Shown: piece after piece, positions 2,083 through 51,780 of the stretch
How positions within the stretch are numbered: the first letter of the stretch is position 1
How the letters are laid out: each line of letters begins with the position of its first letter
Source of the DNA: Candidatus Omnitrophota bacterium
GTDB lineage: Bacteria > Omnitrophota > Gorgyraeia > Duberdicusellales > 4484-171
Assembly (NCBI GenBank): GCA_003154195.1
Contig: PMCS01000029.1
Span: 132,547 to 196,546, forward strand
Reading direction: 5' to 3'
Length of the DNA: 64,000 nucleotides
Made by a program: the position numbers and the translations under genes
The notes under the pieces: generated by a model
The model's database searches: none
Seen by the model: the letters and a program-made list of their open reading frames with translations, nothing else
What the model was told of the DNA's origin: nothing

Positions 2083-2484
2083 ATAATGAGACTTAGCCGA
2101 ACTAGCATGTACTCATGCTTAGTGAGGCTGTAGTCGAATTACCCAGCACTAATTTTGCCGTAGCAAAATTAGTGCTGGGTTTGAAACTTCGTAAAAAATA
2201 TCGGCACCCGCTTCGCGGATGAAAAACAACAAAAATAACCGAGTATTAAAAAATTTATTCGAGACGCAAAAAAATAACCCCGTCCTGAAAATTTCCAGAA
2301 CGGGGCTGTTTTATCGGGTTGATAAACCGCATTGTATGCATTTAAATTATCCTTGCCGGCCTCGCAGGACCAGCTTAAAGGTTAGTTAGTTTTCCCGACA
2401 AAATACCGCAAGAAAACTAACTAAATATACACTACCAAAGGCTGTATGTCAAGACAAATGAAAAAAAAAATGTTTTTGGTGTAA

Positions 2485-8943: not shown

Positions 8944-9837
8944 TTAATATAAAGTTCCGCTTTTATTTATTGTTTTCTTTTTTGGTTTTCGTTCTTCTGC
9001 CGGCTGGACCGAAGGCAACACGTTATCTTCTAAAATCGTGATTTCTTCCGGCATGCTTACAATTATCTCCGGCTTATCCTTATAATCCCTGACCCGCCCC
9101 GATACTTCTATCGCTTTACCGGTATAAAAATTTGCCGGGTTGATATTTTTCTTACAAAAAAATTGCCGGGCATCGTCAAAAATTACTACGGTAAAGGATT
9201 TTTTACGCTTTTTCCCGAAATTAAGTAAAATCACCTTCCCTGAATCGTAAGTTTTTTCGACCCTTCCGCGAACAGTACGAATCTGGTTGATGTATTCTTT
9301 GGCGTCGGAAGCATCGATTGCTTCATAATTACCCCACAGATTTTTTCTATTCTCCCGGGCTCTTGTCTGCGCCGCGATAAACACATCGGCATGTTTTACA
9401 TTGGGAGCTTTAATAAATAACGTGGCAAACCCCTCTTCCAGCATTTTAGCGTTGACCATCTCGCCGCCGGGTAAATAGCAATAACCCAATAACCGGTTAT
9501 ACTTATCATTTTTCTGAACATCAAATTCCACCCTGATAATTTTACCTTCGACTAACCGGCGGTTGAATTCCGTGGCTTCTTTGCCGAATGGCTGAAACGC
9601 TTCCCGCCACGTTCCATCGGGATTCTTTAGGTGAGTTTCCGGAGTGTCAATGCCTAAATAGCGCAAATATTTTCCGTTAGCCAGAACTATGGTATCGCCG
9701 TCGACAACACGGACAACGTTGACTTGATAATAGTCGGAAAAGTTTGCGTAATTGCGGCAGGCGCAGAAGAAACCGATCGCGGTTAAAATTACTAACTGCT
9801 TTATCGGATGAGATAAACGAAAAAAATACTTAGGCAT
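8944..9837 (-). CDS. staphylococcal (micrococcal) nuclease-like thermonuclease with C-terminal OB-like domain, secreted/lipoprotein
   Basis: VVDGDTI...GIDTPE SNase motif; N-terminal hydrophobic/Cys lipobox-like segment. Confidence 0.7.
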   Translation of the reverse strand: MPKYFFRLSHPIKQLVILTAIGFFCACRNYANFSDYYQVNVVRVVDGDTIVLANGKYLRYLGIDTPETHLKNPDGTWREAFQPFGKEATEFNRRLVEGKIIRVEFDVQKNDKYNRLLGYCYLPGGEMVNAKMLEEGFATLFIKAPNVKHADVFIAAQTRARENRKNLWGNYEAIDASDAKEYINQIRTVRGRVEKTYDSGKVILLNFGKKRKKSFTVVIFDDARQFFCKKNINPANFYTGKAIEVSGRVRDYKDKPEIIVSMPEEITILEDNVLPSVQPAEERKPKKKTINKSGTLY

Positions 9838-9909
9838 TGTTTATAACCTTAATCATTCCGGAGAATTTTCGAGAGTTTTGCTATCCTAATATCCCAACGC
9901 AGTTGTTGT

Positions 9910-10260
9910 TTAATTTACCGCTATTCCATATGTACGAATTTCATACGAAAAAGTACTGTAGGGGTCTGTTAAGCCTGCGGGTGAAAGCGGGATAGGTTCT
10001 ATATGCGAATCTATTTGCATAGCAAGCCGGCGTAAAAGCATCATTTCTTTTATAGCATCACGGCCAAATTGCCTCGAAATAATCGCTATGTCAATATCGC
10101 TGTCTTTGGCCGCATTACCTTTAGCGTGTGAACCAAACAAAATCATCTTTGACACACGAATACCTTGCTTACGCAACAATACGGCAAATTTACGTATAGT
10201 TGTTTTATCTTTTGTTTTTATAGATGTTTTTGAAGCCATACCAATAATCCTCCGGTACAT
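9910..10260 (-). CDS. nucleotidyltransferase (MNT-type) antitoxin-like protein
   Basis: LFGSHAKGNAAKDSDIDIAI minimal NTase motif; overlaps HEPN partner. Confidence 0.75.
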   Translation of the reverse strand: MYRRIIGMASKTSIKTKDKTTIRKFAVLLRKQGIRVSKMILFGSHAKGNAAKDSDIDIAIISRQFGRDAIKEMMLLRRLAMQIDSHIEPIPLSPAGLTDPYSTFSYEIRTYGIAVN

Positions 10261-10559
10261 TTAATATATTTTGCCGAAAATACTTTTGTGGCTTTCTTAG
10301 CAAATTGAAGTTTATAATCATCGTACCGCGCCGCAATATTAAACGTACTGATTTCGGATAGATCAGTCTTATTTTTATCGTCAAGAACAATACCCGCTTT
10401 TTCCGCCAACCGCACTAAATCGTGCACAAACGGCGGCGCGCTATTGGTCTTTTTAACGATAACCGCCTTAAGCATTTTCTCAATGCATAAGTGACAGAAA
10501 AATAATGCGTGACTATAATTACCGCCGCGGCAAAATCTTCTTGCGATGATGTGCGCCAA
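10218..10559 (-). CDS. HEPN domain protein (HEPN/MNT pair)
   Basis: AEKxLKAVI...PPFVHDL...ARYDDY pattern typical of HEPN (PF05168-like) proteins paired with MNT. Confidence 0.6.
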   Translation of the reverse strand: MAHIIARRFCRGGNYSHALFFCHLCIEKMLKAVIVKKTNSAPPFVHDLVRLAEKAGIVLDDKNKTDLSEISTFNIAARYDDYKLQFAKKATKVFSAKYIKCTGGLLVWLQKHL

Positions 10560-13721: not shown

Positions 13722-14330
13722 CTATCTCCAGCGTTCCGGACGGACAAATTGCTGATTGTCTATTTTTACAACATCGGGGAATTGACAACTGGCGAGATGC
13801 TTCTCTTTAAGTTTTATATGAAAGTCGGCAACTTGCTTTAATTCTTCCGCGCGCCTTCCGATAGGAATTACTATTCCAGTTTTTTTGGCCGGAAAAGTTT
13901 CCCTAACCGCTTTGATAGCGGGAATTAAATCACTATCGCCGGAAATAATTACCGCCGTATCCCAAATATCCATAACAGCGGTCTTAAAAAGTGATATGGC
14001 TATATTTACATCGGTTTGCTTTTCTTCAAAAGTTTGATACTTCTTTCGGCAATTTCGGCAAGTTTTATCTACACGCCTGAATGCTCCCAGCACCACGTCA
14101 ACTCCCGCCGATTCCAATATCCTTACATATTCACGATGGCGTTCCATTTTTGCAGCATCCCATGTGGCATATGTAGTAAAATAAGTTGTTTTAACAAGCT
14201 TATCATTGGGTGGGATTAATAATTCGGCGAGCCTTTTAAGATTGAGCCATTTATATTTGTGATATCTCGGCTCATCATTTAGAGAATGATAGAGATTAAA
14301 TCCGTCGACAAAAAAAGCTAGTCTGCCCAT
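13722..14330 (-). CDS. NYN (LabA-like) domain protein
   Basis: FVDGFNLYH...ISGDSDLIPA motifs typical of NYN/LabA nuclease fold. Confidence 0.65.
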   Translation of the reverse strand: MGRLAFFVDGFNLYHSLNDEPRYHKYKWLNLKRLAELLIPPNDKLVKTTYFTTYATWDAAKMERHREYVRILESAGVDVVLGAFRRVDKTCRNCRKKYQTFEEKQTDVNIAISLFKTAVMDIWDTAVIISGDSDLIPAIKAVRETFPAKKTGIVIPIGRRAEELKQVADFHIKLKEKHLASCQFPDVVKIDNQQFVRPERWR

Positions 14331-15707: not shown

Positions 15708-15786
15708 TGGCGGGGACGAAGGGATTTGAACCCTCGGTCACATGCGTGACAGGCATGGGTCTTGAACCGGGCTAGACGACGTCCCC
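15708..15786 (-). tRNA. tRNA-Asp (anticodon GTC), CCA encoded
   Basis: Cloverleaf readable by eye; anticodon loop CTGTCAC; its 3' 17 nt are duplicated at 10763-10779 and 13548-13564. Confidence 0.75.
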
Positions 15787-16049
15787 ATTTTTTCCTGCGG
15801 CTTTGCCGCAGGAAAAAATCTGTCAATCCGTCTTACGACGGATTGAAATAAAATTATAGCTTCAAATATTGTTTAGTCAACTTATCTTGTAAATTAATAA
15901 AGAACAACGTAATATTTATTTTTATGTTTTTCTGCTTCTAAAATCTATTTCGAAATGGCGGAAGGCATTTTCTCCGCAACTTGAAAAATGCGTAACCGTA
16001 TTTTTCAAGTTGCTATATTTTTTTTCGCTCTTAATAGAGCGAAAAAAAA

Positions 16050-16123
16050 TGGGCAATACAGGACTCGAACCTGTGATCCCTTCCATGTCAAGGAAGTGCT
16101 CTAGCCAACTGAGCCAATTGCCC
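16050..16123 (-). tRNA. tRNA-Val (anticodon GAC)
   Basis: GGGCAATTGGCTCAGTTGG...anticodon loop TTGACAT...GGTTCGAGTCC T-arm. Confidence 0.75.
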
Positions 16124-16338
16124 AAATGAGGCTTAGCCGAGTCCAAGTCCGAAGGACGCCGGACGAGGCTGTAGCCGAATTTGCCCGGCAAATGTTCAAA
16201 AATTGTCGAAGAGAATTTTTGAACGGTTTATGAGCCGGGACGAAAGATATGAAAACATGCCTAATATTTCAATGAGGACTTTCCCGCGTTTTTGACGCGG
16301 GAAAATTATACCATTCTTTTTGCCAAAGGCAAAAAGAA

Positions 16339-16423
16339 TGGGCGAGGAGGGAGTCGAACCCACACGTCCCTTACGGGACAGCAGATTTTAAGTCTGCGCT
16401 GTCTGCCATTCCAACACTCGCCC
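16339..16423 (-). tRNA. tRNA-Leu (anticodon TAA), class II with long variable arm
   Basis: Anticodon loop CTTAAAA; variable arm GTCCCGTAAGGGAC; GGTTCGACTCC T-arm. Confidence 0.75.
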
Positions 16424-16806
16424 AATTTTAATTTTTACTTCGTAAAAATTAAAATTGCCGCCCCCTTTTTACTGAACAAGTTCAGTAAAAAGGGGGAAAT
16501 GCATATAAAAGTGAGTAATTTTTCAATTTGTTAAACGATCGACAAGACTTTAAATATTTGCCGATTGTTATCTATTTTGGTTTTTGTTTCTTCTCTTTTC
16601 CCATCCACGAAGTGGATACCACTTTTTATTTCTGCCTATAGGCAGAAATAAAAAGGCGACGAGCGGATTTTTGAGCACCTTAATACATTATATAGCGAAA
16701 TCCCGCCGAGTATTTCAAAAATATCGAAGAGATTTTTGAAATGTTTACGAGACGGGAGAACCGCTCTCCCCCACCTTCCCGGATTCCCTATCCAAATTAC
16801 CAAACG

Positions 16807-16878
16807 AGGCGACGAGCGGATTTGAACCGCTGGATAGCGGTTTTGCAGACCGCTGCCTTACCACTTGGCTACGTCGCC
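16807..16878 (-). tRNA. tRNA-Cys (anticodon GCA)
   Basis: Anticodon loop CTGCAAA; 3' 17 nt duplicated at 16654-16670. Confidence 0.7.
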
Positions 16879-19061: not shown

Positions 19062-19182
19062 ACTTGGTAAAGGTTATGGTAATGAAGCCGGTATAAAAAC
19101 TTGGTTAAGGTAAAGGTTTTAAGATTAGTATCAACCTTCGCCTTGCCTTAACCCAAACCGGCATCGTAACCTTAACCTATAT
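19062..19182. repeat. family 1 (GGTTAAGG-type) intergenic repeat, shorter copy between parB and ndk
   Basis: Shares GGTTAAGG...CCGGCATCGTAACCTTAACC ends with other copies. Confidence 0.6.
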
Positions 19183-20010
19183 TTTTATCCTGCTCAAAAC
19201 CCTCTCCAAATCCGAAAGATTAAAATACTCGATGACAATCTTTCCCCGGTTATTCTTTTTGTGGGAAATTTTTACCTTGGTGCCGAGAATTTTTTGCAGT
19301 CTTTCTTCTACTTCTAAAACATGCGGGTCATTGATTTTTTTCTTCCGGGAAACGCTTCTGACTTTTTTTTCTATTTCCCGCACCGGAAGCGGCCCGGCTA
19401 AAATCTGTTGGAATAATTTCTTCTGCTCTTCCTCGTTCGCCAGACCAAGAATTGCCCTTGCCTGGCTTCGACTGATCAGTCCCCGGCTTAACGCCTTCTT
19501 TATTTCTTCCGGAAGCTTCAGCAGCCGGAGCGTATTGGAAATGGTAGTTTTGTCTTTACTGACAAATTTGGCGACCGTATCCAGGGTAAATTCGAATTCC
19601 TCCATTAATCTTTTAAAAGCCTGCGCTTCCTCGATGGCGTTCAAATCCTTGCGCTGCAAATTTTCTATAATGGCAACCGTTAACGCCTCTTTATCGTCAA
19701 TGTCCTTAATAATAACCGGCACCTGCGTTAATTTTAATAATACCGCCGCTTGATAGCGGCGTTCTCCCGCGATAACTTCATATTTATCCTCGGATGCCTT
19801 GCGCACCACTAAGGGTTGGATAACGCCTTTTTCTTTGATGGACTGAGACAATTCCTCCAAGTCTTTTTCATTGAAATCCTGGCGCGGCTGGTATTTACCG
19901 GGTTGCAGTTTTTCTAAAGACAGGTAAGCAAATTCTCTCGGCGTAGCCGGCAGGGTAGCTTTTTTAGGAATGAGCGCGTCTAGTCCTTTACCCAATACTC
20001 TTTTTTCCAT
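19177..20010 (-). CDS. parB: chromosome partitioning protein ParB/Spo0J
   Basis: GERRYQAAVLL ParB box, KGLDALIP N-terminus, HTH region; start set at MEKRV (ORF-track upstream extension begins at TTG inside a repeat element). Confidence 0.85.
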   Translation of the reverse strand: MEKRVLGKGLDALIPKKATLPATPREFAYLSLEKLQPGKYQPRQDFNEKDLEELSQSIKEKGVIQPLVVRKASEDKYEVIAGERRYQAAVLLKLTQVPVIIKDIDDKEALTVAIIENLQRKDLNAIEEAQAFKRLMEEFEFTLDTVAKFVSKDKTTISNTLRLLKLPEEIKKALSRGLISRSQARAILGLANEEEQKKLFQQILAGPLPVREIEKKVRSVSRKKKINDPHVLEVEERLQKILGTKVKISHKKNNRGKIVIEYFNLSDLERVLSRIKI

Positions 20011-20255
20011 AATTTGGATTGCCTTAGTGAATTCCCACCGACTTTGTCGGTGGTTTAGTATAATAAAACTAAGCCCCGCCGTTTCACGGCGGGCCAAGTT
20101 TTATTACCCGGCGCTAATTTTGGTGTACCGAAATTAGCGCCGGGCTAATTCGACTACCACCTCCCACTTCGCCCCCGCCATCCCATAGATGGCGAGGTCT
20201 CGTCAATTCGTTGAACGAATTGAGGGACTTCGGGCTTGTGTTCGGTGAAGTCTCA

Positions 20256-21023
20256 TTAATTAAGCTTAATCGGTTCTTTTAAAATCTCCTGCGCAAGGTT
20301 TAGATATGCTTTAGCGCCCACGCAATATTGGTCATAAAAATGTATAGGCTGGCCAAAGCTCGGCGCTTCCGCGAGCCGGATATTACGCGGGACAATACTG
20401 TTAAAAGCTTTCTCTTTAAAAAATCCGCGCACTTCCTCTATTACCTGAAGACTCAGGCGGGTTCGGAAATCAGCCATCGTCAGCAAGATTCCTTCAATCT
20501 CCAGATCCGGATTAAAACGCTGACGCACCAACTCTATGGTGTTGACTAATTTGGCAACGCCTTCCAGGGCATAATATTCGCACTGAACCGGAATTACCAG
20601 ACTATCGCAAGCGCACAGGACATTCACAGTCAATAAACCCAGGGACGGCGGCGCGTCAATAATCAGGTAAGAAAAGTTATCTTTTATTTTATCAAGTTCT
20701 CTTTTTAATTGCAACTCTCTATTTTCCACATTAACCAATTCGATTTCCGAACCAGTCAACGCAACCGTGGAAGGCATAAGGGAAAAATGCGGCCACTGGG
20801 TAGGATAAATACTTTCCTGTAGCGTCTTGGTGCCGGCAATCACATCGTAAATAGAATTCTTATCCGTATTGTCAAACCCCACCCCGCTAGTCGCATTGCC
20901 TTGCGGGTCCATATCGATAAGAAGTACTTCTTTACCGCTTAAGGCAAGGTAAGAAGCAATATTAATCGCGGTAGTAGTTTTACCAGTACCCCCTTTTTGG
21001 TTACAAACACCGATAATTTTACC
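20256..21023 (-). CDS. parA: chromosome partitioning ATPase ParA/Soj
   Basis: Deviant Walker A KGGTGKTT; start set at MGKIIGV. Confidence 0.85.
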   Translation of the reverse strand, partial: GKIIGVCNQKGGTGKTTTAINIASYLALSGKEVLLIDMDPQGNATSGVGFDNTDKNSIYDVIAGTKTLQESIYPTQWPHFSLMPSTVALTGSEIELVNVENRELQLKRELDKIKDNFSYLIIDAPPSLGLLTVNVLCACDSLVIPVQCEYYALEGVAKLVNTIELVRQRFNPDLEIEGILLTMADFRTRLSLQVIEEVRGFFKEKAFNSIVPRNIRLAEAPSFGQPIHFYDQYCVGAKAYLNLAQEILKEPIKLN

Positions 21024-21115
21024 CATAACGCAAATCACCAGAAATACTGTCATTAATTCATAACTCATTGTGCCGCAATGAGTTATGAATATTTTAATCC
21101 TCTTCTCTATCCCCT

Positions 21116-21131
21116 GTTTTCACGTGAAAAC
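21116..21131. promoter_or_regulatory. parS-like 16-bp perfect palindrome GTTTTCACGTGAAAAC (copy 1)
   Basis: Resembles canonical parS TGTTNCACGTGAAACA around a CACGTG core; 4 copies between parA and yidC. Confidence 0.55.
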
Positions 21132-21283
21132 GGCTGGCTGGTTAGATTACCTTTCGCACAATCCCACGCACCAATAACCAAACTTTGGGGAAAATAGTTC
21201 ATCCCTTGCATAGTTGGAACAGATTACCGGTTCATTTAATTCTAAACGTAACAAGGCAATGGTTAACCAAATAACTCTGCCCC

Positions 21284-21299
21284 GTTTTCACGTGAAAAC
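21284..21299. promoter_or_regulatory. parS-like palindrome (copy 2)
   Basis: Identical 16-mer. Confidence 0.55.
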
Positions 21300-21356
21300 G
21301 TAATTATAGTTTAATACTTAATTTAGTTTTTGCAAGAAATTTCTGCGCCCTGACCA

Positions 21357-21372
21357 GTTTTCACGTGAAAAC
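21357..21372. promoter_or_regulatory. parS-like palindrome (copy 3)
   Basis: Identical 16-mer. Confidence 0.55.
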
Positions 21373-21526
21373 GGAAGCGGTTCCGCGTACGTCAGGTAAA
21401 TATTTTTCGCACGTTTCAAATAGTGGAAAACCTGTGAAAATTGTGATTTCATGCAAATCGGCAACCTGCAGGTGTGGTTTTCTGGTGCATGAATAAACGG
21501 GAAAAATACATTTCCCGGGTTACCGC

Positions 21527-21542
21527 GTTTTCACGTGAAAAC
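21527..21542. promoter_or_regulatory. parS-like palindrome (copy 4), abutting yidC stop
   Basis: Identical 16-mer. Confidence 0.55.
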
Positions 21543-21543
21543 G

Positions 21544-22980
21544 CTATTTTGACCTGGCAAGATGAATTTGATAGAGGAGAGTCAAAAAATTCTGAATAAA
21601 CCAGTAAAGGGCTAAACTGGAAGGAAAATTATAGAAAATAACCCCGATAAAAACCGAAAAAAACAGCCCCATTCGTCTTTGGTCAACAGAAACCGCAGGG
21701 GAAACGGTAAATCTTTGTTGCACTAAACCCACACCCATTATTAAAAGCGGTATGATATTGATATAATCCACAGGGGGTGGAAACCCGAGCTTGATTGCGT
21801 GATCGGGAAGAGTTAAATCTTTAATCCACAAAAACTTAGCGCCTTTTAACTCGGTAAGACTTAAAAAAACCTGATAAAGCGCAAAAAACAAAGGAAACTG
21901 CAAAAAAACCGGCAAACATCCGCCGATTGGATTTACTCGGTATGTTTTATAAAGTTCCAATATTTCACTATTTAATTTTTGGGGATTATCTTTATACTTC
22001 ACTTTCAATTCTTCAATATGCGGCTGAATTGCTTGCATTTTTTTCATCGCCCGAGTGCTTATATTCGTAAGCGGAAACAGGATGATAAAAATTAAAATTG
22101 CTAAAATTATTATGCCTAACCCCCAACTTTTGGTAAGGTCATGACAAAAAGAGAATAGTTTGACAATAATAACACCAATACCATGAAAAAAACCATAATG
22201 TATAACACTTTGTAAACCAAAGGGTTGCAACGATTTTTGTAGTTGAGGGCCCACATACAAAGTCACTTCGGGCAGAGGAGAAACAAGGAGCAATGAAACA
22301 TTATTTTTGTTATCTTTGGCCCACTGAATATCATATTCGCCTTTAATTAAAGAGGCGCAAAAATATTGGGTCCGGCTGCCGGCAAAATCAACTTTTTCTA
22401 CCAACTTATCTTTTACTTTAGGCAGCGGCATCCGTTCCATCAGCAGGTTTTGAGAATAATAAATTCCTTGATACCTGTGCTGTAACTGGTTGGCGCTCAA
22501 AATGTTATGAAATAAAACCATCGAAGAAAATGGTGAAACCTTGATGGTAATTAAGTTTCCCTCAAAAATAAACTCTTTGCGGATATTATCGGCAGTAAAA
22601 ATAAGACGGTTTTGGTTAATGTTTACGGAAAATTTCTTATCCCGGTCAGCCGGAGTAAAACCGATATCTTTGATCAATAAGTCATCTGTGGGATAAGAAT
22701 TTAATTTTACAAAACTTACGTAACCACCGATGGCAGAATAAGTTATGGTGAAATTGTCCAATTTAAGTTCAGGTAAAGATGCAGTAACTTCTTGAGGAAC
22801 ATTAACGCCGGAAGCAGGAGCGGTAGAGGATTGAACAGCTTGTTGTGGCGTAACAGGTTGCTTTGATTGCTCACCTAACGGGACAGTATTTTTAGGAAAA
22901 TATTTAGCCCCGATATAGGAATAAACAGTTAAAAAAAGAAAACTCACTACAATTGCGGCAATAAATCGTTTGGTATCCAT
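21544..22980 (-). CDS. yidC: membrane protein insertase YidC
   Basis: N-terminal TM, periplasmic domain, C-terminal 5-TM Oxa1 core (MKKMQAIQPHIEELKVKYKDNPQKLN...). Confidence 0.85.
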   Translation of the reverse strand: MDTKRFIAAIVVSFLFLTVYSYIGAKYFPKNTVPLGEQSKQPVTPQQAVQSSTAPASGVNVPQEVTASLPELKLDNFTITYSAIGGYVSFVKLNSYPTDDLLIKDIGFTPADRDKKFSVNINQNRLIFTADNIRKEFIFEGNLITIKVSPFSSMVLFHNILSANQLQHRYQGIYYSQNLLMERMPLPKVKDKLVEKVDFAGSRTQYFCASLIKGEYDIQWAKDNKNNVSLLLVSPLPEVTLYVGPQLQKSLQPFGLQSVIHYGFFHGIGVIIVKLFSFCHDLTKSWGLGIIILAILIFIILFPLTNISTRAMKKMQAIQPHIEELKVKYKDNPQKLNSEILELYKTYRVNPIGGCLPVFLQFPLFFALYQVFLSLTELKGAKFLWIKDLTLPDHAIKLGFPPPVDYINIIPLLIMGVGLVQQRFTVSPAVSVDQRRMGLFFSVFIGVIFYNFPSSLALYWFIQNFLTLLYQIHLARSK

Positions 22981-23106
22981 TTTGAATTAGAAAAATCTGT
23001 TGATCGGTTGTCAGTTTTTATGATTACCGATTGTGGTCGATCGTCGACCTACCTTTAATATGCGGCCATTTGCCCTTAAGCGGTACCCGATGAGCTTAAC
23101 ATACTT

Positions 23107-23313
23107 TCAATGTACCGGGTCGTGCCCGCCATAATTTCGCGGGTTACAGCGTCCAATGCGGCAGATGGTCAATCTAGCCGCTTTTAAAAAAGAGTGCCGC
23201 TTAAAAGATTCTTCGGCGTACTCGGAGCAGCTGGGATAATATATACAACGCGACGGAAACAAGACGGAAATCCGGCGGTAAAGGGAAATTAAAAAAATGA
23301 TAATCCCGTTCAT
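23107..23313 (-). CDS. yidD: membrane protein insertion efficiency factor YidD
   Basis: 68 aa; YYPSCSEYA...RC.P...GGHDPV motif; start ATG overlaps rpmH stop (ATGA). Confidence 0.8.
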
Positions 23314-23447
23314 ACCGTTAGTTTCTTTCTGCCCTTTTTCCGGCGCCTTGCCAAAACTTTTCTGCCGGAAGCATTATCCATCCGCGCGCGAAAGCCATGC
23401 CGCCTCTTACCTTTTAATTTAGTGGGGGTATGAAGATTTTTTTTCAT
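23310..23447 (-). CDS. rpmH: 50S ribosomal protein L34
   Basis: Not in ORF track; hand translation [45 protein letters not shown]. Confidence 0.85.
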
Positions 23448-23653
23448 AGGCAAAAGATTTTAACATAAATTAGTTTTGTGTCAACATACAAAAAATACAA
23501 AAAATAATTGCAAAGAAGAATTATTGAAGTATAATAAGGGTTACATATTTTTTAGAAAAGCCGGTAATAACTTGAAAGTATCGGAATTCCTGTTGTTCCA
23601 ACCATCCTTTAATCTGGTTGTGAATAAACTGTCTAAATTGTGAATAGACTTTT
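23448..23653. promoter_or_regulatory. AT-rich rpmH-dnaA intergenic region, candidate oriC/dnaA promoter with DnaA-box-like sites
   Basis: TGTGAATAA at 23619-23627 (1 mismatch to TGTGGATAA) and TGTGAATAG at 23639-23647; low GC. Confidence 0.35.
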
Positions 23654-24985
23654 ATGGAAAACTTGTGGGAAAATTGCAAACAAGCATTGCGTAAAAACAT
23701 CGGCGATATATCCGTGGATACCTGGATTGCGCCGTTGCATCCTAAAAAAATCGACGGCGCCGGCATTATTTTAGAAGCCCCCGACGGCTTTTTTAAAAAT
23801 TGGGTGGAATCGAACTACCTTGATCAGATAAAACAATCGTTTAAAGATTTATTCCAAAAAGATGTTGAGGTAACTTTTGAAGTCAATACCACCCTTCTCA
23901 AAAGCAGGACAAATAAAGTTTTAAAAGATATCAATAAAACATTTCAGCCTGCTTCGCCGGACTCGTTTCGCTTGAATCCGCGTTTCACGCTGGATAATTT
24001 TGTGGTCGGCGCCTCCAACCGGATGGCTCACGCCGCTTCTGTAGCAATTACCGACGCTCCGGGGAAAGCCTATAATCCGTTATTTATTTATGGCCGGGTG
24101 GGGCTGGGTAAAACGCATTTAATGCAAGCTATCGCTCACGCCATGTTTTTAAAAAATTCTCAAAGCCGGGTTAAATATACCTCTTCGGAAAAATTTACCA
24201 ATGAGTTGATTATGGCGATTCAAAACCGGACTACGGATAAATTCCGCCAGAAATATCGGGAAATCGACCTTCTTTTAATTGATGATATTCACTTTCTCGC
24301 CGGAAAGGAAACGGCGCAGGAAGAATTCTTTAATACTTTTAACGTCCTTTATGATTACCATAAACAGATTGTTATGTCCAGCGACCGGCCGCCTAAAGAA
24401 ATCCCGAAGTTGGAGGAGAGGCTGGTTTCGCGTTTTGGCTGGGGGCTAGTGGTAGACATCCAACCACCGGATTTTGAAACCAGAGTGGCGATTCTTTATA
24501 AAAAATTAGAGAAAGACCCGGTGAAAATAGATGAAGAGGTGATTTATTTTATCGCCAAGAATATCAGCACTAATATTAGAGAACTCGAGGGGGCGCTGAT
24601 AAGGATTATCGCCTATTCTTTGATTGAGGATAAACCAGTTACTTTGGAGTTGGCAAAAGACATTTTAAAAGATATGGTGAAAGAAATATACCGGCGGATT
24701 ACTCCGGAAATTATCCTGGAAAGGGTGGGGGGATATTTCAATACGCAGATCAACGACTTAAAAAGGGGTAAACGTAATAAAAATCTAGTTATTCCGCGTC
24801 AGGTCGCGATGTATTTAATAAGAGAGCTTACGGAATTATCCCTTCCTGAAATCGGCATGTTTTTTGGCGCAAAACATCATACAACAATTCTCTATGCTCA
24901 CAAAAAGATTAAAGAAGAGCTGAATAAAAACGAAAAACTAAAATTAATTATCCACACCATTACACAGGAGATTAAGGGTTTATAA
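23654..24985 (+). CDS. dnaA: chromosomal replication initiator DnaA
   Basis: AAA+ Walker A GRVGLGKTHL, box VII, C-terminal DNA-binding HTH. Confidence 0.95.
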   Translation: MENLWENCKQALRKNIGDISVDTWIAPLHPKKIDGAGIILEAPDGFFKNWVESNYLDQIKQSFKDLFQKDVEVTFEVNTTLLKSRTNKVLKDINKTFQPASPDSFRLNPRFTLDNFVVGASNRMAHAASVAITDAPGKAYNPLFIYGRVGLGKTHLMQAIAHAMFLKNSQSRVKYTSSEKFTNELIMAIQNRTTDKFRQKYREIDLLLIDDIHFLAGKETAQEEFFNTFNVLYDYHKQIVMSSDRPPKEIPKLEERLVSRFGWGLVVDIQPPDFETRVAILYKKLEKDPVKIDEEVIYFIAKNISTNIRELEGALIRIIAYSLIEDKPVTLELAKDILKDMVKEIYRRITPEIILERVGGYFNTQINDLKRGKRNKNLVIPRQVAMYLIRELTELSLPEIGMFFGAKHHTTILYAHKKIKEELNKNEKLKLIIHTITQEIKGL

Positions 24986-31638: not shown

Positions 31639-31712
31639 GTCCCCATCGTCTAGCCTGGTTTAGGACATCGCCCTTTCACGGCGACGGCGCCAGTTCAAAT
31701 CTGGCTGGGGAC
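31639..31712 (+). tRNA. tRNA-Glu (anticodon TTC)
   Basis: GTCCCCATCGTCTAGCC...anticodon loop CTTTCAC...GGGGACG; 3' 17 nt duplicated at 31815-31831; flanked by twin AT-rich hairpins. Confidence 0.75.
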
Positions 31713-31888
31713 GCTTTTTTTGGAAAAGTAGTTCTTCAGCCCAAGCGAGGCCAGTTCTCTCGCCTGCACTTCGTTCGGCGGGATTTCGCTGGATAGCGGC
31801 ATTACGGTGCTCAAAAATCTGGCTGGGGACGTTTTATTTTTTACTGCGTAAAAAATAAAACCTTTCCGCTTCGCGGGTGCAAAAACTA

Positions 31889-38901: not shown

Positions 38902-39312
38902 ATGAAAACCGAATACATCATTGTTAATACCAACGGCAATAACGATATCGTCGATATAACCAAGAATTTAGAAAGTATTATAAATGAGGCAAAACTAAAA
39001 GACGCCATCTTATTCTTAAACGTTATCGGTTCAACCGCGGCCCTGACTACGATGGAATATGAATCGGGCCTGGAGAAGGACTTAAAGCAGGCCATTGATA
39101 AGCTTATCCCGTTTAAAAAAGACTACGCCCATAATGCTACCTGGTCAGACGATAACGGCCACGCTCATTTGAGAAGCTCTTTTATAAAAACAAACTTTTT
39201 TGTTTCGGTAAGCGGCGGAAAACTCGATTTGGGCACCTGGCAGCAGGTGGTGCTCATTGATTTCGATACTCGGCCGCGCGAACGTAAAATTGTGGTGAAG
39301 ATTGTGATATAA
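38902..39312 (+). CDS. YjbQ/UPF0047 family protein (secondary thiamine-phosphate synthase-like)
   Basis: NATWSDDNGHAHLRS...GKLDLGTWQQVVLIDFD matches the UPF0047 signature. Confidence 0.7.
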   Translation: MKTEYIIVNTNGNNDIVDITKNLESIINEAKLKDAILFLNVIGSTAALTTMEYESGLEKDLKQAIDKLIPFKKDYAHNATWSDDNGHAHLRSSFIKTNFFVSVSGGKLDLGTWQQVVLIDFDTRPRERKIVVKIVI

Positions 39313-39504
39313 ATTTAGAGTAACGGTACCGATGGCTACGGATAAAGATACGTTAATCGTAAACCGGTTGCCCGCCTAGCCGAGCTAGGCGAGGCTGGCG
39401 TAACTCGAAACGTCAATCGTCATTCGGCTGTCGTCAAAAAGCCGATAAACGATAAACGGTAACCGTAACGAGCCGCGCAACCGATTAACGAAAGACGAGA
39501 AATA

Positions 39505-40326
39505 ATGGACTTAAAGCAGCCCATTGAAACTTATGATTTAGTTTTTCTTGACCTGGAGACTACCGGCCTTGAGGTTGTTACCGGCGATGCCATCTGCGAG
39601 ATCGGGGCAATCAAGATAAAAAGCCGCGAACCAAGAGATAAGTTTCATACCCTGGTTAATCCCGGCCGCCGCATCCCCGTCGAAGCTTACCAGATTCACA
39701 AGATTTCCGAAGCCGAGGTAAAAAGCGCCCCCCTTTTTCCGGATATTGCCGAAAAATTAATTGCTTTTCTGGCCGACAGCGTCCTTCTGGTTTACAACGC
39801 CGATTTTGACATCGGATTTCTTAACCACCACCTGAAGAAAATAAATTATCCTCCGATTGATTTGCCGGTAATCGATATTTTAATCATGGCCAGGAAAACC
39901 TTAAAGCTCGCCAAATACAATTTATCGGAAACCGCCGCCTTCTTTAATTTAAAATCCGAAGATACGCTACATCGGGCGATGGCCGATACGGCGTTAACGG
40001 CGCGGGTTTTTTTTAAATTAATCGACATCCTTAAAGCCAACAAACTGGATTGCCTGTCCGATTACCTCACTCTTTACGGGCATAACGACGATGTTTTTAA
40101 AACCAGGCAAATGTCGAAAAAATTGTTGATTAAAGAAGCGATTGCCAAAAAAATGGAATTAAAATTGCGTTATTTTTCCCCGGGAAATACAATCGAAGAA
40201 TCGCGCATCAAGCCCTTGCATATCATCGAAGAAAAAAACACCGCGAGCTTCTGGTTCAAACTGCCCGCCGGCAACAGCGTCCAGATACCGTTCAATAATA
40301 TTTTTAATATCGAGATAATTATTTGA
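39505..40326 (+). CDS. DEDDh 3'-5' exonuclease (DnaQ/PolIII epsilon-like) with extra C-terminal domain
   Basis: Exo I (VFLDLETTGL), Exo II (YNADFDIGFL), Exo III (HRAMADTALTARVF); followed by hairpin terminator. Confidence 0.75.
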   Translation: MDLKQPIETYDLVFLDLETTGLEVVTGDAICEIGAIKIKSREPRDKFHTLVNPGRRIPVEAYQIHKISEAEVKSAPLFPDIAEKLIAFLADSVLLVYNADFDIGFLNHHLKKINYPPIDLPVIDILIMARKTLKLAKYNLSETAAFFNLKSEDTLHRAMADTALTARVFFKLIDILKANKLDCLSDYLTLYGHNDDVFKTRQMSKKLLIKEAIAKKMELKLRYFSPGNTIEESRIKPLHIIEEKNTASFWFKLPAGNSVQIPFNNIFNIEIII

Positions 40327-40365
40327 GGGCCGGGTATTTCCGACCCTCAAATAATTATGTAAAAA

Positions 40366-40482
40366 ATGTCCTACGCCGACTGCTTCGCCGCCGCCCTGGC
40401 AAAAATCAATAAAGCCGAGCTGATTACGGGGGATAGGGAATTTAAGGAAGTGGAAGGGGAAGTGAAGGTGGTTTGGCTGTGA
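40366..40482 (+). pseudogene. possible 38-aa C-terminal remnant of a PIN-domain (VapC-like) toxin
   Basis: MSYADCFAAALAKINKAELITGDREFKEVEGEVKVVWL resembles PIN C-terminal strand-helix. Confidence 0.3.
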
Positions 40483-40513
40483 GCCACTTTTATTAAAATA
40501 TAACCAAGCTGCG

Positions 40514-40966
40514 TTGAATTTTAACAAGGAAGAAGAACGGCCGATTTTGTTCCGTGAAGGCAAAGAGCGGCAAGCTATTTTACGGATTCGTGTAAATCAG
40601 CAGTTTTTTAGAACAACTATTCTCGCGAGCTATAATTTTAGCTGCGCCATTACCGGACTTACGAATAATGACCTTCTAGTTGCTTCTCATATTATGCCTT
40701 GGTCAAAAGATGAAAAAAACCGATTGAATCCCAGAAACGGTATTTGTCTAAATGCTTTACATGATAGGGCGTTTGACAGAGGTTTGATTACGATTGCCCC
40801 GGACTACACAATAAAAATATCGCCCAAATTGCGAAATTATTATAATGAGCATTTTGTCTCAATGGCGCTTAAGCAATATGAGGGACTTCATATAAATCTT
40901 CTCTCAAGATTCCTTCCCGATCCAGCTTTGCTGGGATTTCATAACGCTGAAATTTTTCAAGAATAA
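40514..40966 (+). CDS. HNH endonuclease (HNH_2-like), probably N-terminally truncated
   Basis: SCAITGL...LVASHIMPWSKD...NGICLNALHDRAFDRGLITI; 150 aa vs ~280 aa typical; non-ATG start in ORF track. Confidence 0.55.
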   Translation: MNFNKEEERPILFREGKERQAILRIRVNQQFFRTTILASYNFSCAITGLTNNDLLVASHIMPWSKDEKNRLNPRNGICLNALHDRAFDRGLITIAPDYTIKISPKLRNYYNEHFVSMALKQYEGLHINLLSRFLPDPALLGFHNAEIFQE

Positions 40967-41094
40967 AGATATTTTTCCATATCTTCATGCCCAAAGACAA
41001 AACGTTAAATTTTAAAACCCGCCCTTTTATAATTTGCTATGAATTCACTCTATATTTTGGTAAAATACCTCTAGAAAAATAGATTATAGACTGA

Positions 41095-41212
41095 CCCCGC
41101 CCTTTTGGCTGGGTGGTTAGATAAAAAAGCGGTTCTATTGTAATTCCAAAGCGGTTATTATAAAGAAAAGCTTAATTTACCAATAGCGCCAAAAGGGCGG
41201 GGTTCAATTCGA
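41095..41212. repeat. long hairpin repeat (CCCCGCCCTTTTGGC...~90 nt...GCCAAAAGGGCGGGG), copy 1
   Basis: Second copy at 41815-41937; the pair flanks the Lrp/AsnC gene. Confidence 0.75.
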
Positions 41213-41273
41213 CTACACTCGTTTTCTGCGCCTTTGGCTTGAAAACGAGTAAGTTTCATTGAGGGAGGTTACT

Positions 41274-41756
41274 ATGGACGATATTTTAGAGATATTGGAG
41301 CAAAACGCGCGGACATCAATGGAAGATTTGGCTAAACTTACCGGAAAAACCAAAAAAGACGTGGCGGCGGCGATAAAAAATTATGAGAAGAAAGGGGTAA
41401 TTGTAAAATACAAGACCGTCATCGATCGAAGCAAAACAAAAAATAACGGCGGAGTAACCGCGCTCATCGAAGTCAAGGTGACGCCGCAAAAAGATGTCGG
41501 TTTTGACGGCATCGCCGAACGCATCTACAAATTTCCCGAAGTAAAAAGTTGCTACCTTCTTTCGGGGACGTACGATTTACTCCTTTTGATCGAAGGTAAA
41601 GATATCCATACGGTAGCCAATTTTGTTTCGGAAAAATTGGCGCCACTCGATTCGGTAAAGGGCACTTTCACCCATTTTATGCTTAAGAAATATAAAGAAG
41701 ACGGCGTAATGATTGCGGGCGAGGAGAAGAATAAACGATTGGCGATAACGTATTAA
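41274..41756 (+). CDS. Lrp/AsnC family transcriptional regulator
   Basis: N-terminal HTH (ILEILEQNARTSMEDLAKLTG) and RAM/ACT C-terminal domain; GAGGGAGG RBS. Confidence 0.8.
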   Translation: MDDILEILEQNARTSMEDLAKLTGKTKKDVAAAIKNYEKKGVIVKYKTVIDRSKTKNNGGVTALIEVKVTPQKDVGFDGIAERIYKFPEVKSCYLLSGTYDLLLLIEGKDIHTVANFVSEKLAPLDSVKGTFTHFMLKKYKEDGVMIAGEEKNKRLAITY

Positions 41757-42079
41757 ATGAGACTTCGATTTTTCCAAGCCCGAAGGGCGCAGGGAAAATC
41801 GGTAGTCGAATTAAACCCCGCCCTTTTGGCTGGGGTAATTGGATAAAGAAACGGTTTATTACAATTTTAAGGGAGTCATTTTTAAAAAAAGTCTAATTTA
41901 ACGATAACGCCAAAAGGGCGGGGTTTTCACCGCCTTCCTTAAATAATTATTTTAGGGAAGCGGGATCCCGCCAAAGGCGGGAAATTCGCAGACGGCCTTG
42001 GCATCTAAAATGTCAAGGCCTATGATTTAAGAAATTTGGTAAAATTTCCTAAATCATCTGCTCATTAAAGGAGGTACAC

Positions 42080-42238
42080 ATGGCGGAAGAGAATATAAAA
42101 GTACCATCGGAACAGGAAAAAAGTTGTGGTTGTGGTTGCGGAAAAGATCTCAAAACAATGCAGATACCTCTGGGGGTTAGCTTTATAGTATTGCTTATCG
42201 CCTGCGCGATAATCGGGGTTATCATCTTCAGTATATGA
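42080..42238 (+). CDS. 52-aa Cys-rich single-TM small protein (hypothetical)
   Basis: Not in ORF track; MAEENIKVPSEQEKSCGCGCGKDLKTMQIPLGVSFIVLLIACAIIGVIIFSI; AAAGGAGG RBS 6 nt upstream; 3' end overlaps aminotransferase start. Confidence 0.4.
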   Translation: MAEENIKVPSEQEKSCGCGCGKDLKTMQIPLGVSFIVLLIACAIIGVIIFSI

Positions 42239-43386
42239 TTGCGGAAAAGATTAGAAAATTAGCGCCTTCGGGAATAAGGCAATTCTTTGACCTTGTCCTG
42301 GGGATGCCGGAAGTTATTTCTCTGGGCGTGGGCGAGCCGGATTTTATTACCCCCTGGCGTATCCGGGAAAAAGCGATTACCGCTTTGGAGGAAGGCTACA
42401 CCTCGTATACTTCCAACAAAGGTTTAACGGTATTGCGCCGGGGAATCTGCGCTCATTTGCAAAAAAAGTTTTTCCTTAAGTACAATCCGGAAGAGGAAAT
42501 TCTTATTACTGTAGGTGTAAGCGAAGGCCTGGATTTAGCCATGCGGGCAATCCTGGATCCGGGCGATAAAGTCATCGTACCGGCCCCTTATTATGTAGCC
42601 TATCCGGCCCTGGTCGAGATTGCCGGAGGAAAACCCCTGCTGTTAGAAACATCCGATCGGGAGGACTTCAAGATAAATATTGGTCATTTAGAAGAATTAG
42701 TAAAACAAAACCCCAAAGCGATTATTCTTAATTATCCTTCTAATCCTACCGGCACTACCTATACTAAAGCGGAGCTTAAAAAACTGTGCCGTGTCCTGGC
42801 AAAAAAAGAAATTATTATCATAACCGATGAAGCTTACGATGAGTTGACTTACCAGAACAACCATTTTCCCGTGGCGGCATTCGATAAAAAGATACGAAAC
42901 CGGACCATCATGCTTAACGGTTTTTCTAAGGGCTACGCGATGACCGGTTTCCGCGTGGCTTACGCCTGCGCCAATAAAAAAATTATTGAGGCGATGACTA
43001 AAATCCATTCTTTTTCCATGCTCTGCGGCCCGATTCTTTCCCAGGTCGCCGCGACCGAAGCATTGCGTTGCGCGCAAGAGGTGACGGAGATGAGGCAGGA
43101 ATATAAGCGGCGGCGTGATTTTATGTTTAAGGAGCTGAACCGTATCGGTCTTGCCTGCCATTTGCCTACGGGCGCGTTTTATTGTTTCCCTTCGATAAAA
43201 AAAAGCGGCCTTTCCAGCCTTGATTTTGCCCGGCGCCTTCTTTTCGAGGAAAAAGTTGCCGTGGTCCCCGGCACGGCCTTTGGCGAAAAATACGGCGATT
43301 TCGTGCGCATGTCCTACGCCACCAGTTTTGATAATTTGAAAGAAGCGATTATCCGGATGGAAAGGTTTATGAGTAAATTAGACTAG
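42235..43386 (+). CDS. PLP-dependent aminotransferase, class I (AspC family)
   Basis: NPTGT and SKGYAMTGFRVAY (PLP lysine) motifs. Confidence 0.85.
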   Translation: MIAEKIRKLAPSGIRQFFDLVLGMPEVISLGVGEPDFITPWRIREKAITALEEGYTSYTSNKGLTVLRRGICAHLQKKFFLKYNPEEEILITVGVSEGLDLAMRAILDPGDKVIVPAPYYVAYPALVEIAGGKPLLLETSDREDFKINIGHLEELVKQNPKAIILNYPSNPTGTTYTKAELKKLCRVLAKKEIIIITDEAYDELTYQNNHFPVAAFDKKIRNRTIMLNGFSKGYAMTGFRVAYACANKKIIEAMTKIHSFSMLCGPILSQVAATEALRCAQEVTEMRQEYKRRRDFMFKELNRIGLACHLPTGAFYCFPSIKKSGLSSLDFARRLLFEEKVAVVPGTAFGEKYGDFVRMSYATSFDNLKEAIIRMERFMSKLD

Positions 43387-43515
43387 AGACCTTAAATTTC
43401 ATTTTAAATTGTTCATTGGGCATTGACCATTTTAAATTTTAGAAAATGATAAATGTCCAATGATCAATGATAATTTTAAAATGAATTAATCATCGGTTTT
43501 CGGTCAAAGAAAATA

Positions 43516-43803
43516 ATGACGATAAAACATATAAAAATTGGTAAAAAAATGATCGAAGCTTTACTTATGCCGCTGGGGGCAAAAAACCTCATCGTTTTAC
43601 GCGGCCGCCGCGGATATGTGATGTGCGGTTATCTTAATCTTTCTGCGGCCAATAAATTCCACGACACAGCGGTAAAAATTACCGGAGTCGCCACTATTAA
43701 TGAAGCCCTGGCTGCGAAAGCCCATTCCTTAAGTTCCGCCGCCAGGAAATCAGGTATCTATAAAGGCCAGCCGGTGCGGGAAGTGTTGAAAATCATCGCC
43801 TGA
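43516..43803 (+). CDS. DUF1805 (YunC-like) family protein
   Basis: GYVMCGYLN...AVKITGVATINEAL pattern. Confidence 0.45.
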   Translation: MTIKHIKIGKKMIEALLMPLGAKNLIVLRGRRGYVMCGYLNLSAANKFHDTAVKITGVATINEALAAKAHSLSSAARKSGIYKGQPVREVLKIIA

Positions 43804-43870
43804 AAGAGAATGTAGGGGCGAAACTATCATTCGACTTCACTCAGGACAAGTTGTTTTCGCCCGTAACCAT

Positions 43871-46276: not shown

Positions 46277-46635
46277 AAAAAAAGAAAAAGGACCTGGAAA
46301 TATCGTTTTATGAAGGTTTGATCAAAGAACGCCCCGAATTCGTTCCGGCGCTGCATTCGCTGGGCGATGCCTACACGCGCCGGGGTTTTTATCAGGAGGG
46401 CTTGGAGGTCGATAAAAAATTAGTCCGCCTGCGGCCGGACGATCCGGTGGTGCATTATAATCTCGCCTGTAGTTTTTCTCTCACCGGAGAAATAGACCAG
46501 TCACTCGCTGAGTTAAAGAAAGCGGCGCTTTTGGGTTACGATGATTTCAGGTATATCTTAAAAGATTCCGATTTAGCCAACGTGCGCAAGCACCCGCAAT
46601 TCAGCGAGTTTTTCGCAAAACTTAAAAAAACATAA
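46273..46635 (+). CDS. TPR repeat protein
   Basis: ALHSLGDAYTRRGFYQEGLEV / HYNLACSFSLTGE TPR-like helices; start overlaps upstream stop. Confidence 0.5.
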   Translation: MKKKKKDLEISFYEGLIKERPEFVPALHSLGDAYTRRGFYQEGLEVDKKLVRLRPDDPVVHYNLACSFSLTGEIDQSLAELKKAALLGYDDFRYILKDSDLANVRKHPQFSEFFAKLKKT

Positions 46636-51190: not shown

Positions 51191-51472
51191 ATGATTACTG
51201 TCCAACAAAATACCACATTGATTGGCGTGTCGGAATTACGCACCAAGATGGAGCAATTATTAAAAAAACTGCCGGGGACAAAGGTAGTCATCGAAAAACG
51301 GCATAAACCCATAGCTATTCTTATGTCTAATGAAGAATACGAAAAGACTGAACAGCTTTTAGAAATGGCCGAAGATATTGTCCTGGGCTATTTGGCCAAA
51401 TCCCGCTACGAGAATACCAAGGAAAAAGAATACATAGATATCGAAGAAGTCCTGAAGAAATTGGGACATTAA
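51191..51472 (+). CDS. Phd/YefM family antitoxin
   Basis: 93 aa; Phd/YefM fold pattern; immediately upstream of RelE-like gene. Confidence 0.7.
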   Translation: MITVQQNTTLIGVSELRTKMEQLLKKLPGTKVVIEKRHKPIAILMSNEEYEKTEQLLEMAEDIVLGYLAKSRYENTKEKEYIDIEEVLKKLGH

Positions 51473-51477
51473 CCCCG

Positions 51478-51780
51478 ATGTGGCAGGTAAAAATACACTC
51501 CCTTGTTTTAGAAGAAGATTTTAGAAAAATCAACCACCACGATCAAGCCCTCATTTTAAAGACTATTTACAAAAAATTAAGCTTATCGCCCCAGGAATAC
51601 GGCGAAAAATTAAAATATGGCTTAAAAGGCTACTGGAAATTGAAAATATCCCATTATCGGGTGATTTATCGAATAGAAAACGATAAAATTTTGGTTTTAG
51701 TCCTTAAAATAGACCTGCGCCGCGACCAAGAAGTTTACCGGGAAATGCTGAGCCACCTGAATAGACCGCAGTCAATATAG
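51478..51780 (+). CDS. RelE/ParE family toxin
   Basis: LKGYWKLKISHYRVIYRIENDKILVLVLKI matches the RelE/StbE core. Confidence 0.75.
   Translation: MWQVKIHSLVLEEDFRKINHHDQALILKTIYKKLSLSPQEYGEKLKYGLKGYWKLKISHYRVIYRIENDKILVLVLKIDLRRDQEVYREMLSHLNRPQSI

Follow-up and report, generated by a model that had tools for sequence, protein, structure and literature searches.

Introduction

In nearly all bacteria rnpA, the gene for the protein subunit of ribonuclease P (RNase P), lies between rpmH, which encodes ribosomal protein L34, and the yidD and yidC genes. To our knowledge, Aquificaceae are the only bacteria that lack both rnpA and rnpB, the gene for RNase P RNA, and in them the protein-only enzyme HARP (Aq_880) is the sole RNase P. 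Here we describe the rpmH locus of a Candidatus Omnitrophota bacterium, contained in a stretch of 64,000 nucleotides (hereafter the window; contig PMCS01000029.1, positions 132,547 to 196,546), in which rpmH runs directly into yidD and rnpA is absent, a state that we find in all Omnitrophota examined.

Among more than one million genomes, a survey of HARP recorded 178 bacterial instances (PMC12153264), and most bacteria bearing it retain rnpA and rnpB (PMC10941002). Omnitrophota are absent from the HARP hosts named in the reviews consulted, PMC10941002 included, and they are not among the five bacterial orders that a 2025 survey names for HARP. Our literature search found no paper treating Omnitrophota together with RNase P.

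Absence of rnpA from its canonical site across the phylum

The pair of genes at the centre of this study, and the junction between them, are located as follows.

23310-23447, minus strand: rpmH (ribosomal protein L34), 45 amino acids (aa), with ATG at 23447 and a TGA stop at 23312-23310 (Pfam PF00468)
23310-23313, minus strand: ATGA junction made of the L34 stop (TGA) and the yidD start (ATG), seen in the sequence
23107-23313, minus strand: yidD (membrane protein insertion efficiency factor), 68 aa (Pfam PF01809)

L34 matches PF00468 with an E-value of 2.9e-17 and 62.8 bits (cut-off 25), its residues 3-45 corresponding to profile positions 2-44 of 44, while YidD matches PF01809 with an E-value of 1.8e-21 and 76.1 bits (cut-off 27), covering profile positions 3-67 of 67. 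The initial annotation had placed L34 on the minus strand at 23310-23447 with its stop overlapping the yidD start, which the sequence and both Pfam matches confirm. It had also called the two genes fused; this stands insofar as the open reading frames (ORFs) overlap and are translationally coupled, but they are in different frames and do not encode a fusion protein. Judged by its sequence, the ATGA at 23310-23313 is a translational-coupling junction between rpmH and yidD, and the overlap leaves no room for rnpA between them.

The locus was compared with 20 other Omnitrophota loci (n = 21 with the window), ranging from 33 to 52% GC and representing at least four deep clades; four of the 20 are titled 'Planctomycetia' in their records, yet synteny and the tree both place them with the others. 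All 20 share one gene order, with glmS-gyrA-gyrB-(dciA)-dnaN-dnaA on one side and rpmH-yidD-yidC-parA-parB-ndk-yicC-gmk-rpoZ-tRNA cluster on the other. In none of them (0/20), nor in the window, is there an rnpA between L34 and YidD/YidC, and RnpA was not found within 10 kb of the locus in these 20 either. rpmH and yidD overlap in 16 of the 20, through ATGA, as in the window, in 11 and through TAATG or TGATG in five; a gap of 5-8 nt separates them in two loci and one of 17-41 nt in two. rnpA is therefore absent from the rpmH-yidC cluster in every Omnitrophota locus examined, and a coupled rpmH-yidD pair is left behind. The initial annotation had taken the rnpA-less locus for a feature of one lineage, whereas it extends across the phylum. 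In one of the loci (L024, ~9249-10000), L34 and YidC are present and YidD is not detectable between them.

The placement of the window rests on a neighbour-joining tree built from concatenated DnaA, DnaN, GyrB, YidC, ParA and ParB, in which it groups with a clade holding Candidatus Susulua stagnicola (64% identity). Seymour et al. 2023 (PMC10066038) list this organism in their genome table under class Velamenicoccia, order Duberdicusellales, family 4484-171, and we place the window's bacterium in the same class. As Stordalen MAGs (fen_1317 and fen_1318) also stand in this family in the table, we read the WOOD18-1 label of the window's scaffold as Stordalen Mire. Among species-representative genomes, the nearest YidC sequences are those of Candidatus Omnitrophota metagenome-assembled genomes (MAGs), at 46-47% identity.

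Outside the phylum, the arrangement that the initial annotation had assumed to be normal is borne out. The same scan returned 58 evaluable non-Omnitrophota loci, including Verrucomicrobiota, Kiritimatiellia, Lentisphaerota, Chlorobi, KSB1 and Bacteroidota, and L34-RnpA-YidD-YidC was seen in all of them (58/58). Likewise, L34 lies directly upstream of rnpA in 71 of the 75 loci with sufficient upstream sequence among 80 random metagenomic rnpA loci; the four exceptions keep rnpA and yidD together or meet a contig end, and none has rpmH-yidD without rnpA. The rpmH-rnpA linkage is by these two controls among the most conserved of bacterial gene pairs, and for a whole phylum to have expelled rnpA with all else left as it was is unusual, which makes the rearrangement a clear synapomorphy of Omnitrophota.

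The same rpmH-yidD junction recurs on independent contigs of the window's species, obtained from other samples and with other assemblers (L001, L003-L005), and so the absence of rnpA is not an assembly artefact. A mis-join in assembly or binning that dropped the gene has no point in its favour and, with the rnpA-less locus present in 20 different MAGs besides, deserves practically no credence.

In four Opitutales and Kiritimatiellia loci (L051, L073, L078, L032) the RnpA frame begins upstream of the L34 ORF and overlaps it. This recalls the rpmH-within-rnpA arrangement of Thermus, and may merely reflect long open frames in high-GC DNA. A Thermus-style rnpA overlapping rpmH in another frame was also considered for the window, where no such frame occurs.

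Architecture and predicted expression of the operon

The further features of the locus, and one ORF that is discussed below, are these.

23457-23484, minus strand: predicted sigma-70-type rpmH promoter, TTGACA, 16 nt, TG-n-TAAAAT (consensus scan, 11/12 matches plus the TG extension)
22981-23106, minus strand: yidD-yidC spacer of 126 nt (from the coordinates)
21544-22980, minus strand: yidC (membrane insertase), 478 aa (Pfam PF02096, E-value 1.9e-49)
23654-24985, plus strand: dnaA, divergent from rpmH and 206 nt upstream of it (Pfam DnaA domains)
20256-21068, minus strand: parA (Pfam), beyond yidC and part of the phylum-conserved block
19177-20097, minus strand: parB (Pfam), beyond yidC and part of the phylum-conserved block
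13722-14330, minus strand: ORF with an NYN domain (Pfam PF01936), 1.4 kb from the tRNA cluster

As in the canonical cluster, rpmH, yidD and yidC share one orientation and lie next to dnaA, and dnaA is followed in the window by dnaN, dciA, gyrB and gyrA. In the composition profile of the window the GC skew changes sign near 22 kb, which marks the rpmH-dnaA locus as the replication-origin region. The 126-nt spacer sets the window apart from most relatives, in which yidD and yidC abut; its predicted fold (-27.2 kcal/mol, z = -2.1) is mildly more stable than shuffled controls.

Only 9 nt separate the end of the predicted -10 hexamer from the L34 ATG, with no Shine-Dalgarno sequence between them. 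The same geometry, with the -10 ending 8-10 nt upstream of the ATG and no Shine-Dalgarno sequence, is found in 13 of the 21 Omnitrophota loci, while L009, L010 and L019 instead have a distal promoter, AGGAGG and a GTG start for rpmH. Because the -10 element is so near the start codon and a Shine-Dalgarno sequence is lacking, the rpmH mRNA is probably leaderless or nearly so, if the promoter predicted by consensus is functional. A strong promoter would then drive the rpmH-yidD-yidC operon, with yidD translation coupled to the termination of L34.

Neither L34 nor YidD is called as a gene on the public contigs of the window's species, and their exact sequences were not found in a collection of 15 billion proteins. 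Since gene callers miss both, presence/absence tables of small genes, RnpA included, are unreliable for this lineage.

Two sets of repeats were observed in the origin region. The parA-yidC intergenic region (21109-21546) holds four perfect palindromes of 16-18 nt, (C)GTTTTCACGTGAAAAC(G), at spacings of 168, 73 and 170 nt. They closely resemble TGTTNCACGTGAAACA, which we take to be the parS consensus, and they probably constitute an array of parS sites next to parAB in the origin region. Directly before the dnaA start codon, at 23618-23650, are two direct repeats, TTGTGAATA(A/G)ACT, whose reverse complements (TTATTCACA, CTATTCACA) resemble DnaA boxes; DnaA-box matches show no significant enrichment across the whole window.

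Local searches for RNase P components

RnpA was sought with the E. coli, B. subtilis and T. maritima sequences and with a profile, using phmmer and hmmsearch in six frames. Across the whole window no match was better than an E-value of 0.1, and a profile enlarged with 58 sequences from related loci gave no match there either. When the plausible ORFs of small and middle size in the window were scanned with Pfam, PF00825, PF08745 and PF16953 were not found, and none of its unannotated small basic ORFs is RnpA-like even at permissive thresholds. An RnpA hidden in the window is ruled out by the six-frame hidden Markov model (HMM) searches and the Pfam scans, which included four ORFs belonging to no family. 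These searches bear out the first reading, which had found rnpA neither at the locus nor elsewhere in the 64 kb.

In the window, Rfam detected RNase P RNA neither at the gathering threshold nor with the limit relaxed to E<=0.5, and only six tRNAs scored above gathering thresholds. Extending the search by 10 kb on either side, to ~84 kb in total, did not reveal RnpA, HARP or RNase P RNA. These ~84 kb are part of ENA scaffold WOOD18-1_SAMN07125060_METAG-scaffold_34 (202,167 bp), to which the window was assigned by exact-protein look-ups, in a genome estimated at ~2-2.5 Mb by analogy with the Stordalen Mire MAGs in the genome table of PMC10066038. A HARP profile made from solved structures found no match or remnant in the ~84 kb or in the 20 other Omnitrophota loci. 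Neither these loci nor the contigs bearing HARP, all of which make up a small share of each genome, yielded RNase P RNA (RF00010/RF00011).

An RNase P-type activity is nevertheless still required. In L010 the tRNAs of the conserved Cys-Leu-Val-Asp cluster are spaced 2-7 nt apart, so that their 5' ends must be cut endonucleolytically. Leaderless tRNAs, which do away with the need for RNase P in Nanoarchaeum, were considered and rejected, as promoter boxes do not stand at a fixed distance from the tRNA 5' ends and the tRNAs of relatives are so closely spaced. In the window the tRNA-Cys, Leu, Val and Asp genes (15708-16878, minus strand) are 210-380 nt apart, compared with 2-50 nt in relatives, and several are flanked by hairpins of a T-run and an A-run abutting the tRNA ends. 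A T-run directly follows the 3' end of tRNA-Asp, Val and Leu of the cluster, and also of tRNA-Glu at 31639-31714.

A HARP gene in a close relative

An exhaustive HMMER search of 1.84 billion representative proteins with the HARP profile showed the family to be small, with 243 matching clusters at 50% identity. One match, P0372 (196 aa), is NCBI OQX80046.1, 'RNA ligase partner protein [Candidatus Omnitrophica bacterium 4484_70.1]'. It scores 191 bits against TIGR03875 (cut-off 95.3) and aligns end to end with solved HARPs, with PDB 7E8K over residues 3-187 (E-value 6.5e-53) and with 7F3E (Aq_880; E-value 1.1e-40), and the motifs of the HARP catalytic region are conserved in these alignments. 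By these similarities P0372 is a genuine full-length HARP. Its loci are L179 (535-1125) and L180-L182.

According to the genome table in PMC10066038, the 4484_70.1 MAG belongs to family 4484-171 and has a CheckM2 contamination of 23%. On its contig, HARP lies tail-to-tail with genes for a TPR protein, DUF3857/transglutaminase, an aminotransferase, AsnC and YjbQ, in the order of window positions 38902-46635, and these proteins are 76%, 52%, 65%, 73% and 67% identical, respectively, to those of the window. This synteny and the 52-76% identity indicate that the HARP contig is truly from Omnitrophota, and from a close relative, despite the contamination of the MAG. A second Omnitrophota MAG (GCA_028715525.1) carries a partial HARP at a contig end (L184, 1-210), and a gene of the same HARP subfamily is present on a Rifle aquifer scaffold (L183, ~770-1306). 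HARP and an Rnl3 ligase are co-localised in 80% of bacterial cases (PMC12153264); no such ligase was seen among the called neighbours of the Omnitrophota HARP genes, whose contigs break off upstream of HARP.

Another HARP, P0365, was considered as the gene of the window's species and rejected, its tetranucleotide correlation with the window being 0.56 against 0.93-0.98 for pieces of the same species. This protein of 252 aa has an N-terminal extension of 50 residues, and its gene (L185 8040-8798, L186 3094-3852) overlaps the end of a LapB-like TPR gene. The contigs come from Stordalen Mire (WOOD18-1), a non-extreme habitat for HARP, and belong with their 48% GC to another organism.

Possible relocation or replacement of rnpA

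The initial annotation had set out two ways to account for the locus, that rnpA has moved or that an alternative enzyme of the HARP type is used. This framing was correct and there is evidence for both. We favour relocation, at a probability of about 0.6: rnpA would have moved to an unlinked site and the RNA-based RNase P would have been kept. In the ancestor of the phylum, rnpA would have been cleanly removed from the rpmH-rnpA-yidD-yidC cluster, after which an overlap of the ATGA or TAATG kind would have coupled the translation of yidD directly to that of rpmH. We infer that rnpA exists elsewhere in the genome of the window, beyond the ~84 kb searched and unlinked to the locus, so that the cell would still use an RNase P made of RNA plus RnpA; the HARP genes that occur patchily in some relatives would be accessory and acquired by horizontal transfer, as they are in most other bacteria that carry HARP.

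The evidence for relocation comes from the per-genome annotation counts that Seymour et al. 2023 (PMC10066038) give in their source-data tables. Among the genomes listed there, K03536 and PF00825 are present in genome 58 (Omnitrophota), and TIGR00188 is present in genome 104 (SKK-01, class Gorgyraia, 98-100% complete) and in genome 194 (GWA2_52_8, class Omnitrophia, 83% complete), and absent from genome 190 (O. fodinae single-cell genome, Omnitrophia, 65-70% complete). As RnpA is annotated in Omnitrophota despite the universally rnpA-less rpmH locus, an ancestral relocation is favoured. The three RnpA-positive genomes are taken to belong to classes other than that of the window's family, as the same tables show for genomes 104 and 194.

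Several points weigh against relocation. Our own search, over ~84 kb, found no rnpA for the window's species or for any member of its family, and when a synthetic RnpA consensus was searched against a database, none of the best 120 matches was named Omnitrophota. SKK-01, one of the RnpA-positive genomes, is a contaminated single-cell assembly according to the tables. Genome 231 (GCA_023819315.1, family 4484-171, 92% complete, 0.6% contamination) is without K03536 and PF00825 among the annotations listed (PMC10066038); it is also listed without PF00829 (L21), so this MAG simply lacks some small genes. Finally, a same-family relative carries a bona fide HARP on a contig collinear with the window.

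Candidates for a relocated gene were examined and rejected. The matches to the synthetic consensus came from Firmicutes, Deltaproteobacteria, Poribacteria and others; two RnpA matches on long contigs lie in canonical Firmicute-type contexts; and the 80 loci obtained by scanning metagenome contigs are canonical almost without exception. A low-GC 'orphan' rnpA (L106) is from Poribacteria.

It is possible, if rather unlikely, that the ribozyme has been replaced: rnpA and rnpB would both have been lost in the Velamenicoccia/4484-171 branch, the organism of the peat fen included, and a HARP-type enzyme encoded elsewhere would take over tRNA 5' maturation, as in Aquificaceae. The full-length HARP of the same-family relative, the two further HARPs found in the second MAG and on the Rifle scaffold, the absence of rnpA from its canonical site in every Omnitrophota examined, and a 92%-complete genome of the family (genome 231) listed without an RnpA annotation are all consistent with such a replacement. 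On the other hand, the window, its 10-kb flanks and the 20 Omnitrophota loci hold no HARP, and the site syntenic to that of the relative's gene is occupied in the window by a 689-aa ORF with a PilZ domain. The relative's HARP abuts a transposase fragment and the contig end, at a break in synteny, which suggests acquisition; the MAG, with its 23% contamination (CheckM2), comes from hydrothermal Guaymas sediment, a habitat type in which HARP occurs sporadically. In vitro, pre-tRNA is left uncleaved by several HARPs of bacteria, and the RNA-based enzyme is retained in most hosts (PMC10941002, PMC12153264); other Omnitrophota classes with the rnpA-less locus have RnpA annotated among the genomes listed in the tables. 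The Guaymas origin of the relative fits a distribution of HARP that is sporadic, linked to habitat and probably due to horizontal transfer.

A gene that is present in the genome but too diverged for the Pfam, KEGG and TIGRFAM models and for the profiles used here, a sub-case of relocation that predicts the presence of rnpB, appears improbable. RnpA is short and fast-evolving, gene callers miss small genes in the lineage, as with L34 and YidD, and genome 231 is negative with two HMM libraries in the annotations listed; yet standard models detect RnpA in three other Omnitrophota genomes of the same tables, and the small basic ORFs of the window are, as described above, not RnpA-like at permissive thresholds. 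Loss of RnpA without a known replacement is still harder to credit. RNase P RNA would then act alone, a way of life for which we know of no bacterial example, or with an unrecognised protein such as one with an NYN domain, the catalytic fold of eukaryotic protein-only RNase P (PRORP). The NYN-domain ORF near the tRNA cluster of the window speaks for this, but it has no NCBIfam assignment and no counterpart in the syntenic loci of the 20 other Omnitrophota, and this lack of conservation led us to reject it as a PRORP-like substitute.

The two principal readings differ in what they would mean. If rnpA has merely moved, as we favour, this is a matter of comparative genomics with little functional consequence. 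If HARP has instead taken over, Aquificaceae would be joined by a second bacterial lineage in which the ribozyme was replaced, and for the first time by one that is not thermophilic; the replacement would have begun when rnpA was excised from the rpmH operon throughout the phylum. Should rnpA and rnpB both be lacking, the idea that thermophily or harsh conditions lie behind ribozyme replacement could be tested in a lineage of cold habitats.

Other features of the window

A match to the PyrR-binding-site RNA at 2270-2385 (minus strand) scores 52.2 bits, against a Rfam gathering score of 54, over the full model length. Its position upstream of a phosphoribosyltransferase gene (1534-2082, probably PyrR) and of pyrB (476-1420) makes a genuine pyrimidine attenuator probable. 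An ORF of 2474 aa at 52195-59619 has no Pfam domain and is conserved on contigs of the same species; giant proteins are a known trait of Omnitrophota. Toxin-antitoxin-like pairs, HEPN with a nucleotidyltransferase and Phd/YefM with ParE, are found at 9910-10559 and 51191-51780.

Comparison with known systems

The Omnitrophota locus has the same genes, in the same order and at the same dnaA/oriC position, as the canonical rpmH-rnpA-yidD-yidC cluster of the E. coli and B. subtilis type, with rpmH promoter-proximal and yidD and yidC downstream. It differs in that rnpA is precisely absent, that the rpmH stop overlaps the yidD start, that the rpmH mRNA is apparently leaderless, and that this state is fixed throughout the phylum.

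The cluster is likewise broken around rnpA in Poribacteria and in two further metagenomic loci where rnpA-yidD occurs without L34. In these loci (L106, L177, L100, L127) it is rnpA that keeps yidD and has lost rpmH, whereas in Omnitrophota rpmH keeps yidD and rnpA has left. The Poribacteria contigs (L106 1560-1997, L177 6001-6633) have the series HNH, hypothetical gene, rnpA, yidD and lack an upstream rpmH.

With Aquificaceae the window shares the lack of rnpA at the rpmH locus, and the HARP of its same-family relative is in the range of ~44% identity to Aq_880 and PbHARP. Unlike Aquificaceae, the window's genome shows no HARP in the ~84 kb examined, the habitat is a cold peat fen and not a hot spring, and other Omnitrophota classes are annotated with RnpA. 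The bacteria with two kinds of RNase P offer a further parallel: Thermodesulfatator, Halorhodospira, Methylacidimicrobium and the Scalindua-like host of PbHARP keep rnpA and rnpB beside HARP (PMC10941002), and in them, as in Omnitrophota, a lineage related to the PVC (Planctomycetota-Verrucomicrobiota-Chlamydiota) phyla, HARP is patchy and probably horizontally acquired.

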